Shown in pieces: positions 4,129 to 44,529 of a stretch of DNA of 64,000 nucleotides. Every line of letters begins with the position of its first letter. Positions within the stretch are counted from its first letter, which is position 1. The notes beneath the pieces were generated by a model that ran no database searches, was not told the DNA's origin, and saw only the letters and a list, made by a program, of their open reading frames with translations. Made by a program: the position numbers and the translations under genes. Source of the stretch: a virus (Duplodnaviria > Caudoviricetes); IMG/VR virus record IMGVR_UViG_3300023055_000005; one strand, written 5' to 3'.

Positions 4129-4680
4129 GTGCAAAAGCCGACGATGGAAGTAATGAAGAAGGAAGACATCCGCATGATAGTGGTGCATTGCACTGCTACC
4201 TATCCGGGTCAGGTCAAAGACGTGGTGAAGTGGGTGGAGGCCGGTCACAAGGCCCGCGGGTTCGCAACCACTGGCTACCACTTCATCATCACCCGAGATG
4301 GCGTGATTCATCAGTGTCGTCCGATGCCGATGATGGGTGCGCATGAGCCGCTGGTCAATCGCATCTCCGTGGCAGTTGCATTGGAGGGCGGCGTGGATCG
4401 GCAGAACAAGCCTGAAGCCAACTACACTCCGATCCAGATGCAGGCGCTCGCGCTCAAGCTCTGGCAGCTGCATCAGACGTACACGATCGAAGGTCTGGCT
4501 GGCCATCGCGATCTGGGCGTACCCAAGGCATGTCCGTGTTTCGATACGCGGTCGTGGTGGCGCGATGTTGGCTACCCGTACGCGCTGGAGTACCACGGTA
4601 AGATATCCAACGAGAAGCGTGACGCGAACAGGGAAATGGCCAAGAAGATCTTCGAACCCCTCGGCGAAGAATACAAGTAA
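4129..4680 (+). CDS. N-acetylmuramoyl-L-alanine amidase (T7 lysozyme/Amidase_2 type)
   Basis: IVVHCTAT, GYHFII, GAH, GHRD and KACPCFD give the Zn-ligand His/His/Cys pattern of T7-type amidases. Confidence 0.9.
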   Translation: MQKPTMEVMKKEDIRMIVVHCTATYPGQVKDVVKWVEAGHKARGFATTGYHFIITRDGVIHQCRPMPMMGAHEPLVNRISVAVALEGGVDRQNKPEANYTPIQMQALALKLWQLHQTYTIEGLAGHRDLGVPKACPCFDTRSWWRDVGYPYALEYHGKISNEKRDANREMAKKIFEPLGEEYK

Positions 4681-5136: not shown

Positions 5137-5602
5137 CTGGGAACAACCCCGCGGCGACCAACGCTGGCGCACCCGTGAAGAGCAGGTCAAGGACCAGCGC
5201 GATCTGATCATCGACCTGGTGCGAAGCGAAGCGCGTACCTTCGCCAAGTCGCTCAGCCGTACGGACTACCTCAGCCACGGTGAGTTCGTCATGCTGTTGA
5301 AGCTGGAGGACGGGCGCTTCCTCTCGATGAAGTTCCCGCAGAACTCCATCCGCGAGCAGTCCTTCATCATGATGCTCCAGAACCCGGCGCTGGTGCACCT
5401 GAACCGCGAAGGTACTTCGCTCTCGCGCTGCCCGGATGACTACAACGAAATCCAGCGTCTGCTGGAAGGTGGCAAGTTCATCTGCTTCCAGCCGGGCTTC
5501 CCACGCTACGGCGAGGATGCTGAAGTCATCCGCGAGTGGTCCACACATACGCCGGTCCCCGCACCGGCAGCACCGAAGGGTAAAAGCAAATGGGTGAAGT
5601 GA
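5096..5602 (+). CDS. hypothetical protein
   Basis: AAGGA upstream of ATG5096; strong C/G third-position bias begins here. Confidence 0.65.
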   Translation: MSYYRSYGSQRKVDWEQPRGDQRWRTREEQVKDQRDLIIDLVRSEARTFAKSLSRTDYLSHGEFVMLLKLEDGRFLSMKFPQNSIREQSFIMMLQNPALVHLNREGTSLSRCPDDYNEIQRLLEGGKFICFQPGFPRYGEDAEVIREWSTHTPVPAPAAPKGKSKWVK

Positions 5603-5991
5603 ACGACGACGTCAGGATCCGCTTCGATTCTGTACTGAAGCTGGCCGCGTCCAAGGGCGGTGACCTGCCCACCAAGCGCTACGCAGCAGCCAGCGATTTC
5701 GCCGGTCAGCTCAAGTGCATCCTGACCGATGAGCCGACGATCGTGAAGTTCTACGTGGAAGAAAACGCCACGCTGATCATCCCGATCAATGTCCTCAGTG
5801 GCTTCTCCTTCGCTACCACCAAGGCGGCGCAGGAAGATCCGATGCTGATGAAGATCTTCGAGGACATCGCCCAGAATGCCATCGGCGTGCTGGGTACGAG
5901 CATCATGCGTTCGGACCAGGGTCTGTGTGTGGTCGTGCCGGTGTTCTTCGGCACCACCAACTCGGAAACCATCGTCGACGAAGCCGGCTGA
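5590..5991 (+). CDS. hypothetical protein
   Basis: 133-aa ORF overlapping the upstream stop. Confidence 0.7.
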   Translation: MGEVNDDVRIRFDSVLKLAASKGGDLPTKRYAAASDFAGQLKCILTDEPTIVKFYVEENATLIIPINVLSGFSFATTKAAQEDPMLMKIFEDIAQNAIGVLGTSIMRSDQGLCVVVPVFFGTTNSETIVDEAG

Positions 5992-5996
5992 TACAT

Positions 5997-6040
5997 GGGA
6001 GGCCCTTCGGGGCCTCCCTCTATGCCCCATCTTTTCTTTT
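5997..6040 (+). terminator. intrinsic terminator, hairpin plus TATGCC plus T-tract
   Basis: GGGAGGCCC-TTCG-GGGCCTCCC, then TATGCC and TCTTTTCTTTT. Confidence 0.8.
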
Positions 6041-6072
6041 GGTTGTAAAAGACGACCCGTGACCAGAATGAT

Positions 6073-6378
6073 TTGGAGACATACCGGCCAACCAAAATGA
6101 ATACCCGAAACACCTCCTGCCAACATGGTCGGGAAGATCTGGAAGTAACCGATGGCATTGGCCACTTCGGCAACAAGACCAAAGTCATCGGCAAGGAATA
6201 CAAGTGCCGCATCTGTGGATATACCCACACCGATGCCAGCGGCCTGCTCGGTTCACTGGTGAGCGATGATGGCCGAAAGCGTAGCGGGCAGCTTCCCGAT
6301 CGCGTCGATCTGGAGAAGCGTGCTGTCACCGACAGTGACTGGGACAGCTTCGAAACGGCCCGCATAGCTGACCAATAG
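6073..6378 (+). CDS. small protein with possible Zn-binding motif
   Basis: SCQHG...YKCRICGYTH; true start uncertain. Confidence 0.5.
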   Translation: METYRPTKMNTRNTSCQHGREDLEVTDGIGHFGNKTKVIGKEYKCRICGYTHTDASGLLGSLVSDDGRKRSGQLPDRVDLEKRAVTDSDWDSFETARIADQ

Positions 6379-6404
6379 CTAGAAGATTCAAACAGGAAAT
6401 AGAC

Positions 6405-6416
6405 CTACATTACCTA
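6405..6416 (+). promoter_or_regulatory. phiKZ-type early promoter core (TACATTAC)
   Basis: CTACATTACCTA in an AT-rich intergenic region; same motif at 16123, 18639, 30621 and 38033; resembles the phiKZ TATATTAC early promoter. Confidence 0.7.
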
Positions 6417-6590
6417 AGGGAGTCAGGCTTTCAAAAGTCGAAGCTCCCTAGGGTCATGAGGTCTATCTTTTGTAGGCCGCAGTAATTCTCCAACTTTTCT
6501 AATTAGAGACCCTGAAACGATGTGCTTAACGCCTCCACAGTAAACTCCTGCATGCGAAAAGGGAGAGCACTGTGGAAGGAGTATCCCTTC
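6417..6590 (+). ncRNA. candidate structured cis-regulatory leader (riboswitch-like)
   Basis: Hand-folded: 5' hairpin 6417-6449, three-way junction 6451-6512, SD/GTG-sequestering hairpin 6534-6576. Confidence 0.45.
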
Positions 6591-6604
6591 TAGAGTCAGC
6601 TCCA

Positions 6605-7201
6605 ATGTTCAACTTGATCAAGAACCTGCTGGTAATGATGGCCGTGCTTAGCGTGACTGCTTGCACCCTGTTCCAGCCCAAGTCTCAGCTCGTTGCATCC
6701 GGTTTCACCATGGCTCCTGTTGAAGCCGTGATCTATCCTGTCAACATTGAAGTTGACGCGCTCCCGATTGTGGAGCTGCCTGTTCCAGTCATACCGCTTA
6801 ACGAACGTTACACTGTGAAGATCACCGACGCCGAAGTGCAATGCATGGCGAAGACGATCTATCACGAAGCCAAGGGTGAAAGTGAAGTAGGAATGCGCGC
6901 CGTAGGGTATTTGACCCTCAACCGCGCAGCGCATCCAGCTTATCCAAAATCCATCTGTGGAGTTATCCACACCAAATACCAGGGTCGATACGAGTACAAC
7001 TGGGTTGGCATGAGACTACCGATCCGCGAACAAGACCGTTACGCAATGGCCATCAAGGTGAGCCGCGACGTCTTGAACCGATCAGTCCCCAATCCGATTG
7101 ACGACAGCTTGTTCTTCCGGAACAAGTCTGCTCACAGGCAACTGCGCTATGAACGCTACGTTGCGACCATCGGCAATCATCGCTTCTACGCCAGGCGATA
7201 G
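6605..7201 (+). CDS. SleB-like cell wall hydrolase (Hydrolase_2), predicted lipoprotein
   Basis: CMAKTIYHEAKGE, AVGYLTLNR, YPKSICGVI and IGNHRFY motifs; signal peptide with lipobox VTAC; alternative start GTG6572. Confidence 0.88.
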   Translation: MFNLIKNLLVMMAVLSVTACTLFQPKSQLVASGFTMAPVEAVIYPVNIEVDALPIVELPVPVIPLNERYTVKITDAEVQCMAKTIYHEAKGESEVGMRAVGYLTLNRAAHPAYPKSICGVIHTKYQGRYEYNWVGMRLPIREQDRYAMAIKVSRDVLNRSVPNPIDDSLFFRNKSAHRQLRYERYVATIGNHRFYARR

Positions 7202-7219
7202 CCCGCAAGTTTCCACCTC

Positions 7220-7251
7220 CCCCCTACCTCCCGCAGCCAGGGGGTAGGGGG
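7220..7251. terminator. GC-rich hairpin after the SleB gene
   Basis: CCCCCTACCTCC ... GGGGGTAGGGGG inverted repeat. Confidence 0.6.
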
Positions 7252-7285
7252 TTTATTCCCTCGTGCTGCGACAAGTGAACCTACC

Positions 7286-7609
7286 ATGAGCAATACCAAC
7301 AACAATCCCACGTACTACGCCATCGACGAAGAAGGCTTCCTGATCCGTGAGCTGGGTCGCTTCAACGTCAATGAACCGGTTGAAGCCGACCAGCTGACCA
7401 AGGAGCAGGACGGCGACTGGTTGGCCATGAATACCGATCTGCGCAGCTTCCGTCGTTCGATCGGCAGCGCCGACTTCGGCGACCGTACCTTCGCCCTGAA
7501 CACCAGCGAGCTCTACCTCACCGAGGTGACCGACGCTGACAACGAAGAGCACGACCTGGTCTACCCGGCTACCGTCATCGACGAAGCCCTGAAGGGTCAC
7601 GGTTTCTAA
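7286..7609 (+). CDS. hypothetical acidic protein
   Basis: 107-aa ORF, strongly biased codons. Confidence 0.7.
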   Translation: MSNTNNNPTYYAIDEEGFLIRELGRFNVNEPVEADQLTKEQDGDWLAMNTDLRSFRRSIGSADFGDRTFALNTSELYLTEVTDADNEEHDLVYPATVIDEALKGHGF

Positions 7610-7619
7610 TCATGGTTGG

Positions 7620-7652
7620 CCGAGGGGGTAACTCCCCCCTCGGTTTTATGCC
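7620..7652 (+). terminator. hairpin plus TTTTATGCC
   Basis: CCGAGGGGG/CCCCCTCGG stem followed by TTTTATGCC. Confidence 0.75.
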
Positions 7653-7669
7653 GCAAACCGAGAGCACAC

Positions 7670-7966
7670 ATGAGCATTGAAGAAGTAACCCCTGAAGTCA
7701 CGCAGGTTTGGGAGTGCAACAAAACCAAACACCCCTACCTGCTCATCACCATCTTCTCCAGCGGCGACTGGTCTGACAAAGCCACCGGTATGGCGGTCAT
7801 GAGCCCGAAGGCTGGTGCAGGCTACAGCAACCGTCATGTGGGCTTGCCGACCCTGATGGACGGTACGGAGTTCACCCTGATCAAGGACTCTGTCTTCAAC
7901 ACCCGGCGGAATGTAAAAGTCGCCAGCGCTGTACCATCCGATGCTGAAACCAGCGCACTCAACTGA
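7670..7966 (+). CDS. hypothetical protein
   Basis: ATG7670 downstream of the terminator, GAGAG upstream. Confidence 0.65.
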   Translation: MSIEEVTPEVTQVWECNKTKHPYLLITIFSSGDWSDKATGMAVMSPKAGAGYSNRHVGLPTLMDGTEFTLIKDSVFNTRRNVKVASAVPSDAETSALN

Positions 7967-44491: not shown

Positions 44492-44521
44492 GGCATAAAG
44501 GGAGGCCCCGAAGGGCCTCCC
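44492..44521 (-). terminator. portal gene terminator (hairpin plus TATGCC on the - strand)
   Basis: GGGAGGCCC-CGAA-GGGCCTCCC; on the - strand identical to the 5997 hairpin. Confidence 0.75.
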
Positions 44522-44529
44522 AGTTCCTA

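Follow-up and report, generated by a model that had tools for sequence, protein, structure and literature searches.

Immediately ahead of the start codon of a SleB-type cell-wall hydrolase gene of a phage lies a structured RNA module (plus strand, 6532-6579) that, judging from a covariance model and from compensatory changes among related phages, is a new, well-supported and gene-specific RNA motif, and a candidate for a new RNA family. Farther upstream, the promoter of the same gene is built into one arm of a long imperfect hairpin (plus strand, 6392-6473). On balance we lean towards an explanation that includes both elements, according to which the gap of 226 nt (plus strand, 6379-6604) between a small gene (6097-6378) and the hydrolase gene would be the control region of a one-gene transcription unit, made up of promoter, leader of ~186 nt, hydrolase and terminator, and would join a composite promoter/insulator hairpin to a gene-specific element of post-transcriptional control. 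The term "riboswitch", under which the initial annotation had placed this hydrolase leader, is premature.

The DNA analyzed here, a stretch of 64,000 nt referred to as the window, covers positions 54334-118333 of an IMG/VR phage genome that measures 234 kb, has terminal repeats and is taken by us to be that of a nucleus-forming, phiKZ-like jumbo phage; its identity to the Xanthomonas jumbo phage Xoo-sp14 (MT939492) is ~81%. The hydrolase gene (plus strand, 6605-7201) encodes 198 residues with the Pfam domain PF07486 and an N-terminal lipoprotein signal peptide whose lipobox reads ...S-V-T-A-C, and the one-gene unit is closed by an intrinsic terminator (plus strand, 7220-7251) with a 12-bp GC-rich stem and then a T run. 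A GC hairpin (5992-6030), with TATGCC and a U run behind it, marks the 5′ boundary of the unit upstream, and just beyond it the gene 6097-6378 begins; between this gene and the hydrolase gene no terminator was found apart from the long hairpin 6392-6473.

Two sets of sequences were compared with the window. The first consists of four close relatives, namely Xoo-sp14, IMGVR_UViG_3300011217_000001 and two Logan contigs found via the hydrolase protein, and across the five close-clade sequences, the window included (below, the five close relatives), the leader is 92% identical; a metagenome scan for still closer relatives returned one distant SleB only. The second set comprises full-length homologues of the lipoprotein-type SleB protein with 35-45% identity, found in the Xanthomonas phages RTH11 and LucasX and in four IMG/VR contigs (190-311 kb).

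The conserved module and the initiation region

The module is formed by an outer helix of 9 bp, in which CCUCCACAG (6532-40) pairs with CUGUGGA(A)GG (6570-79) leaving one bulged A, and by an enclosed inner hairpin (CTCCT 6545-49/GGGAG 6561-65 in the DNA) with an 11-nt loop that contains U-G-C-G-A (6553-57). The initial annotation had drawn an 8-bp stem at this place (TCCACAGT 6534-41/ACTGTGGA 6569-76) together with the inner hairpin, and the comparison between phages supports these as an evolutionarily conserved structure near the start codon. RTH11 has an annotated gap of 217 nt upstream of the hydrolase gene and LucasX one of 179 nt, and in the IMG/VR contigs with a SleB homologue the module stands just ahead of the start codon. 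The 5′ halves of these distant leaders are unalignable and the last 80 nt share one architecture: an outer helix of 9-10 bp (CCCUGCUAG/CUGGCAGGG, CCCUGUCAG/CUGGCGGGG, CCCUGCCGG/CCGGCAGGG and CCCCGGCUGA/UCGGCCGGGG); an inner hairpin whose stem is different in every lineage and whose loop is always U-G-(A/C)-G-A; and, 3′ of the module helix, in the same order in all lineages, a pyrimidine tract, (U/A)AGAG, some ten bases, and AUGUUCAA or a near variant.

A covariance model built exclusively from four distant phage sequences, with no sequence of the window clade among them, gave a single match in the window (6528-6607; 17.7 bits, E ~0.005), which spans the whole model and keeps the register of the AUG. 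Over the 234-kb genome the same segment was the best match (E 0.0145), the next one having an E of 7.5, and each of four relative genomes contains one strong copy of the module, always ahead of the hydrolase gene. The model found nothing at E up to 1 in 204 kb of sequence from 77 loci that surround other phage SleB genes, and in the leader of L012/L014 it gave no match at the expected place. In an alignment of six distinct sequences, which, as a caveat to the counts, was itself fitted to the model and its structure, all nine pairs of the outer helix are paired in every sequence and five of them show compensatory changes, which none of 500 shuffles matched, slid controls being far lower. The G-U pairs of the outer helix fit the sense strand only, and the structure therefore acts as RNA. 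There is, then, a homologous structure in independent lineages, with compensatory changes and in a fixed place relative to the same gene. GGA sites of the RsmA/CsrA kind, read from the alignments, are present in the window clade only.

An alternative hairpin (plus strand, 6570-6595), with a core GAAGG 6575-79/CCUUC 6586-90 that can extend to 6570-79/6586-95 and would in this way cover AGAG, competes with the outer helix, and its extended form is predicted by RNAalifold. The initial annotation had pointed to this competition, and the core hairpin does exist, with one clean compensatory change (A6576-U6589 to C-G in three relatives); in the window the outer helix and the extended 6570-95 hairpin are only 3.6 kcal/mol apart, nearly isoenergetic, and in Xoo-sp14 the minimum-energy fold is the extended hairpin. 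In the distant lineages, on the other hand, the outer helix beats every alternative by 3-17 kcal/mol, so that bistability would at most characterize the window clade, the conserved element being a stable structure, and a two-state switch as a general feature was rejected on these grounds. The predicted accessibility of the ribosome site with the outer helix showed no consistent difference from that without it.

The translation initiation region (plus strand, 6585-6612) comprises the pyrimidine tract CCCUUCU, AGAG (6592-95), CUCCA, and AUG 6605 followed by UUCAA, and both the placement of AGAG and the AUGUUCAA sequence are conserved in all lineages. AGAG pairs only weakly with the 16S tail, at -2.4 kcal/mol (rank 48 among 56 genes). 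In all lineages M-F opens the protein, ahead of a lipoprotein signal peptide that has a lipobox, and in LucasX an in-frame TAG occurs 15 nt upstream of its ATG; for these reasons ATG6605 is taken as the translation start, and GTG6572, which the initial annotation had considered to be an in-frame start buried with a strong ribosome site, is probably not used.

The first eight coding bases (6605-6612, AUGUUCAA or a near variant) are kept in L006, L007, L011, L012 and L013, whose proteins are only 35-45% identical, a degree of base conservation seldom seen in a signal peptide. In RTH11, L013 and LucasX these first coding bases pair with GAGCGU of the ribosome-site region, forming a small hairpin, which suggests a constraint at the nucleotide level.

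As to its function, the stable helix-plus-hairpin, ending 26-28 nt before the AUG, would set or gate the initiation of translation of a potentially dangerous secreted wall hydrolase; we infer this effect on translation from position and conservation. An invariant loop motif on a varying, covarying stem is the usual signature of a protein-recognized RNA, and here the conserved loop sits on a covarying stem that keeps its distance to a weak ribosome site, which suggests that either a protein or the ribosome recognizes the module. It would probably be read by one of these, as an operator or as a standby site, rather than by a metabolite. A more ambitious proposal, which we think rather unlikely, is that the module represents a new class of factor-responsive RNA switch of nucleus-forming jumbo phages, where the binding of a protein of phage or host (less likely of a small molecule) would release or block AGAG, and the long hairpin would ensure that there is a sole regulated transcript. 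If so, the binding of the factor would determine when the wall hydrolase, exported by Sec/Lol and independent of a holin, is made.

The promoter and the long hairpin that contains it

The early promoter that had been proposed upstream of the leader proved to belong to a family. A motif search seeded with the 10-mer 6405-6414, and then a position-weight matrix (PWM) applied to the 234-kb genome, defined a motif of ~40 nt, GATTC(C/A)AA-N4-TTTCA-N3-CTAYAYTAYC, with 22 copies genome-wide, all of them intergenic and on the plus strand; those in the window are at 6405, 16122, 18638, 30620 and 38032. The copy ahead of the SleB gene (plus strand, 6385-6414; PWM score 33 bits) has the box GATTCAAA (6385-92), a spacer, and the 10-nt core CTACATTACC (6405-14), with AAATA where TTTCA is usual, and its core is 100% conserved in Xoo-sp14. 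Across the 22 copies a T-G-A is conserved 5-7 nt past the core. Phages of the phiKZ type have an AT-rich early motif of ~10 nt centered near -10 (PMC7598289), and by analogy with them the promoter can be labeled as of the early, or virion-RNAP, type. Promoters of that type are expected to repeat an AT-rich element of ~10 nt, preceded by a T-rich one, ahead of early operons, and the family of 22 intergenic copies agrees with this. The position of the core in phiKZ-like phages (PMC7598289), together with the T-G-A that follows it by 5-7 nt, places the predicted start of transcription at 6419-6421 (plus strand).

From this predicted start the leader would measure ~186 nt, close to the ~190 nt of the initial annotation, and it is conserved; the median for the other 21 promoters, by a crude estimate, is ~60 nt, and the leaders of phiKZ have 31-40 nt (PMC8244752). 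The sequence CTATTGTATAC was rejected as a repeated promoter in RTH11, LucasX and L013, where it has 1-2 copies per genome at ≤1 mismatch, and promoters at this place in the three phages are therefore putative.

The initial annotation missed the long imperfect hairpin (82 nt, with 28 stem pairs and a small apical stem), whose 5′ arm is the promoter (-28 to +4) and whose 3′ arm covers +24 to +54 (6443-6473) and ends in CUUUUGU. The whole gap 6379-6604 is much more stable than its shuffles (z -4.05), and it is so because of this hairpin: the segment 6379-6480 folded alone reaches -40.5 kcal/mol (z -5.03), with 0 of 200 shuffles as good, and the duplex between promoter and downstream sequence in the window has a z of -5.04, with 0 of 300. 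Both arms are invariant in the five close relatives, one mismatch aside, and over the segment 6384-6478 their variation is limited to the apical loop and one other base. Between the window and Xoo-sp14 the positions +31 to +60 after the promoter core are 100% identical, against 70-87% at three other early promoters, and the 3′ arm is therefore under a constraint of its own. The apical part (plus strand, 6417-6449), which would also be the 5′-terminal hairpin of the promoter-initiated RNA and is the first hairpin of the initial annotation (AGGGAG 6417-22/CTCCCT 6444-49), has changed U6423-G6443 to U-A in two relatives, the apical stem being rearranged yet kept by compensation.

The promoter-in-hairpin arrangement is real in the window clade, the only one where the duplex test is significant. 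In RTH11 and L013 there is a trend (8-9% of shuffles as good) and in LucasX and L011 the duplex is absent; an arrangement common to all lineages, which by eye is suggested in RTH11, L013 and L011, was rejected, the test not being significant there.

An RNA arriving from the upstream gene would have both arms, and would fold into the long hairpin with its U-rich end, where it would most likely be terminated or cut; the RNA initiated at the promoter would have the 3′ arm without the 5′ arm, and would read on. With the upstream RNA stopped and the promoter-initiated RNA escaping, the hairpin would insulate the hydrolase gene, which would be expressed only from its own promoter. The hairpin is thus probably a terminator, an insulator or a processing hairpin for the transcripts from gene 6097-6378. 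Termination is what we infer here; the stem is strong, CUUUUGU (6467-73) forms its weak base, and a simple terminator scan made no call in 6379-6604, the long hairpin included. A T4-like relay, in which the two RNAs would differ in the exposure of the ribosome site, was rejected as the main mechanism, given that the predicted accessibility of this site showed no consistent difference between read-through and promoter-initiated RNA across six lineages.

A TATGCC element lies directly ahead of several other early promoters, and that of SleB, which does not have one, is built into the long hairpin instead; insulation of the early promoters looks like a rule in this genome, the GC hairpin preceding TATGCC having been read at 5992-6030 only. 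Two other early promoters, at genome positions 84953 (window 30620) and 211324, are significantly complementary to the first 115 nt downstream of them (z -2.8 and -3.45), that is, 2 of the 21 other promoters of the genome, and this phage may thus place promoters within hairpins repeatedly.

Other readings of the leader

In the 5′ part of the leader the initial annotation had placed a three-way junction (plus strand, 6451-6512), regarded as an aptamer and formed by GGGTC 6451-55/GACCC 6508-12, GGTCTA 6460-65/TAGGCC 6473-78 (with one G-U pair) and TAATT 6483-87/AATTA 6501-05 (with a 13-nt loop). All the complementary segments that it listed, including GAAGG 6575-79/CCTTC 6586-90, are present, and the junction, which can form only in an RNA without the promoter arm, is indeed the minimum-energy fold of 6420-6531, yet with a z of -0.65; the leader as a whole, folded as 6419-6625, has a z of -1.24, and 22 of 200 shuffles are as good. 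Covariation was found in the outer helix and in the 6575-90 hairpin and is absent from the junction. The first two helices are invariant in the five close relatives, and so uninformative on covariation there, and the TAATT/AATTA helix decays among them (75% of cells paired); in the five-relative alignment a variable spacer (plus strand, 6479-6505) has a conserved UCUCCAA core (6487-93). No counterpart of the junction was found in RTH11, LucasX and three IMG/VR relatives, and the 5′ domains of RTH11, LucasX, L011 and L013 are not alignable and fold differently. Two of the junction helices use the same bases as the 3′ arm of the long hairpin, and these bases are better explained as that arm, paired with the promoter. 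Among other candidates, a long-range pairing of the 5′ end with 6592-6603, seen in the minimum-energy fold of the leader, is contradicted by substitutions in Xoo-sp14, and a minus-strand ORF (6423-6605) and small plus-strand ORFs were discarded, as they have no ribosome sites and one relative has lost a single nucleotide, which would disrupt the frame.

A ligand-sensing riboswitch would have the junction as its aptamer, and a ligand would choose between the 6534-41/6569-76 stem and the 6575-90 hairpin, thereby controlling translation. The leader is certainly long, conserved and rich in helices, with two mutually exclusive 3′ structures that are nearly isoenergetic in the window clade and with the junction as the minimum-energy fold of its transcribed 5′ part; but the aptamer is expected to be the best-conserved part of a riboswitch, and here it is the supposed expression platform that is conserved, the 5′ domain being a different one in each distant lineage, the reverse of that pattern. 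Moreover, the transcribed leader is no more stable than its shuffles, one helix of the non-covarying junction decays among close relatives, and the distant lineages, with the outer helix well ahead in energy, have no switch. The initial annotation had named no matching riboswitch class, and a scan with Rfam 15 agrees, having found no match at the gathering score in the 64 kb, nothing above chance level in 6300-6700 at E up to 10, and nothing in the loci of four distant relatives. Without a family match, a conserved candidate aptamer or an excess of leader stability, the riboswitch reading is unsupported and we hold it to be very improbable. More improbable still is that there is nothing beyond the promoter, so that conservation would be hitch-hiking and the helices the product of chance. 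The close relatives are, it is true, just ~8% diverged in the leader, whose transcribed part is not unusually stable; such a view would nevertheless have to do without an explanation for a hairpin with a z of -5, for a covariance-model match across clades in the exact register of the AUG, for the covarying outer helix and for the lack of matches in 204 kb of control loci.

Premature termination is a reading that we consider unlikely, and it has a precedent in the same group of phages. An attenuator formed by 6532-6579 and a pyrimidine/U-rich tail, or by the first hairpin and CUUUUGU, would stop most transcripts, giving rise to a short leader RNA of ~55 or ~165 nt, that is, a 5′ UTR-derived small RNA, and read-through, possibly by antitermination, would time the expression of the hydrolase. 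In 201phi2-1, a related nucleus-forming phage, 8 of 11 small RNAs come from premature termination in 5′ UTRs, promoter-proximal terminators have been proposed as a timing device for expression, and phiKZ, EL and PA3 share one of these 5′ UTR structures in conserved form (PMC11512511). The tails past the outer helix are U-rich in LucasX and L011, and LucasX has a 5′ hairpin and then UAUUUUGU, wholly downstream of a promoter-like motif; in the window (AGUAUCCCUUCU) and in L013, however, the tail is a poor U tract, the terminator scan of 6379-6604 was empty, and the fixed distance of the module to the AUG, with the conserved AGAG...AUGUUCAA, points to translation. The strand GGGAG of the inner hairpin also allows a dual start, GTG6572 being a second, regulated start masked in the helix-plus-hairpin and giving an isoform with 11 additional N-terminal residues and an impaired signal peptide. 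GGGAGA-N5-GTG is a good look-alike of the typical ribosome sites of this phage (-8.4 kcal/mol), and no stop codon interrupts the frame between GTG6572 and ATG6605 in the close relatives (alignment rows of the window and Xoo types, read by hand). This second start is nonetheless decidedly unlikely, since gene callers chose the ATG in the four close-clade genomes checked, the Xoo-sp14 record included, the M-F start with its lipobox is common to all lineages, LucasX has the in-frame TAG at -15, and the corresponding 3′ strand of the inner hairpin is quite different in the distant lineages and resembles no ribosome site there; in addition, the five substitutions in 6572-6604 have no third-position bias, and two of them make up a compensatory RNA pair.

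Relation to known leaders and to the neighboring genes

The explanation favored here, a promoter within a hairpin followed by a conserved module ahead of the AUG, can be compared with several known systems. A promoter-in-hairpin leader of the T4 gene e type was reportedly described by McPheeters in 1986. In the leaders of T4 gene e (lysozyme), gene 49, soc and I-TevI the promoter lies within the 5′ strand of an inhibitory hairpin (PMC3014915). As with gene e, we are dealing with a phage wall-hydrolase gene that has its own promoter in the 5′ arm of a hairpin, so that upstream and internal transcripts would fold differently; but in T4 the ribosome site is concealed by the hairpin and a late promoter serves as the internal one, whereas here the promoter belongs to the early class and the 3′ arm, which stops at 6473, 130 nt upstream of AUG 6605, does not sequester SD or AUG, no consistent change in the accessibility of the ribosome site being predicted across lineages. 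The long hairpin thus looks more like a terminator or insulator than like a hairpin of the T4 type.

Within the same phage group, the leader represented by sRNA005 of 201phi2-1 and by that of phiKZ gp182 is likewise a long structured 5′ UTR, conserved in position and fold and outside Rfam, and is found upstream of one orthologous gene across divergent phages (PMC11512511). There the gene is that of a tail protein and here that of a lipoprotein hydrolase, the sequences are unrelated, and premature termination has been shown in the former only. With riboswitches the leader shares the multiple helices over a long stretch and the two competing 3′ structures near the start codon; it differs from them in having no family match, and in that conservation falls on the 3′ module and not on the candidate aptamer. 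Phages also have protein-bound translational operators, such as those of T4 RegA, gp32 and gp43 and the coat-protein hairpins of the RNA phages, and the module resembles them in being a single hairpin near the start codon with an invariant loop and a covarying stem; to our knowledge, the U-G-(A/C)-G-A loop matches none of the phage operator motifs compared.

Post-transcriptional control is almost unexplored in nucleus-forming jumbo phages, whose mRNAs must leave the phage nucleus before being translated. The hydrolase leader provides a compact and testable case: a secreted peptidoglycan hydrolase could kill the host prematurely, and the promoter-hairpin should exclude transcription from upstream. 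The module, which covaries and is maintained between phages with hydrolases of only 35-45% protein identity, is a defined RNA for pull-downs and for reporter assays in Xoo-sp14, which is in culture, and a candidate Rfam family.

The stretch is contained in 21 soil metatranscriptome runs, in four of which the phage appears in long contigs, from 28 up to 234 kb, with 190-234 kb in three cases, so that nearly the whole genome is assembled in single pieces. In those four runs (X7, X16, X17 and X22; window 5600-7700) the whole stretch is covered, with word depths of 29-272; the whole-stretch contigs of these assemblies give no transcript starts, ends or strand. The phage was very abundant in those soil samples, be it as DNA carry-over or as pervasive RNA.

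With regard to the neighboring genes, the product of 6097-6378 has 93 residues counted from ATG6097, as in the Xoo-sp14 annotation, and a C-x-x-C motif, KCRICGY, that might be half of a zinc ribbon; it is not the neighbor of the hydrolase gene in RTH11 or in LucasX. At 4129-4680 of the window, 2 kb upstream, there is a second wall-lytic gene, annotated as a lysozyme in Xoo-sp14, whose product, from sequence alone, we would presume to be an N-acetylmuramoyl-L-alanine amidase; together with the SleB gene, this block of the early region therefore has at least two peptidoglycan hydrolases. Finally, the GC hairpin 5992-6030 (GGGAGGCCC-UUCG-GGGCCUCCC), flanked by ACAT and TCTATGCC and followed by the U run, closes the gene that ends at 5991; of the RCATA-hairpin-TATGY type, it resembles a terminator joined directly to a promoter of the TATG (late-like) type, and a 31-nt copy of it is found, inverted, at 44493-44523, ~38.5 kb downstream.
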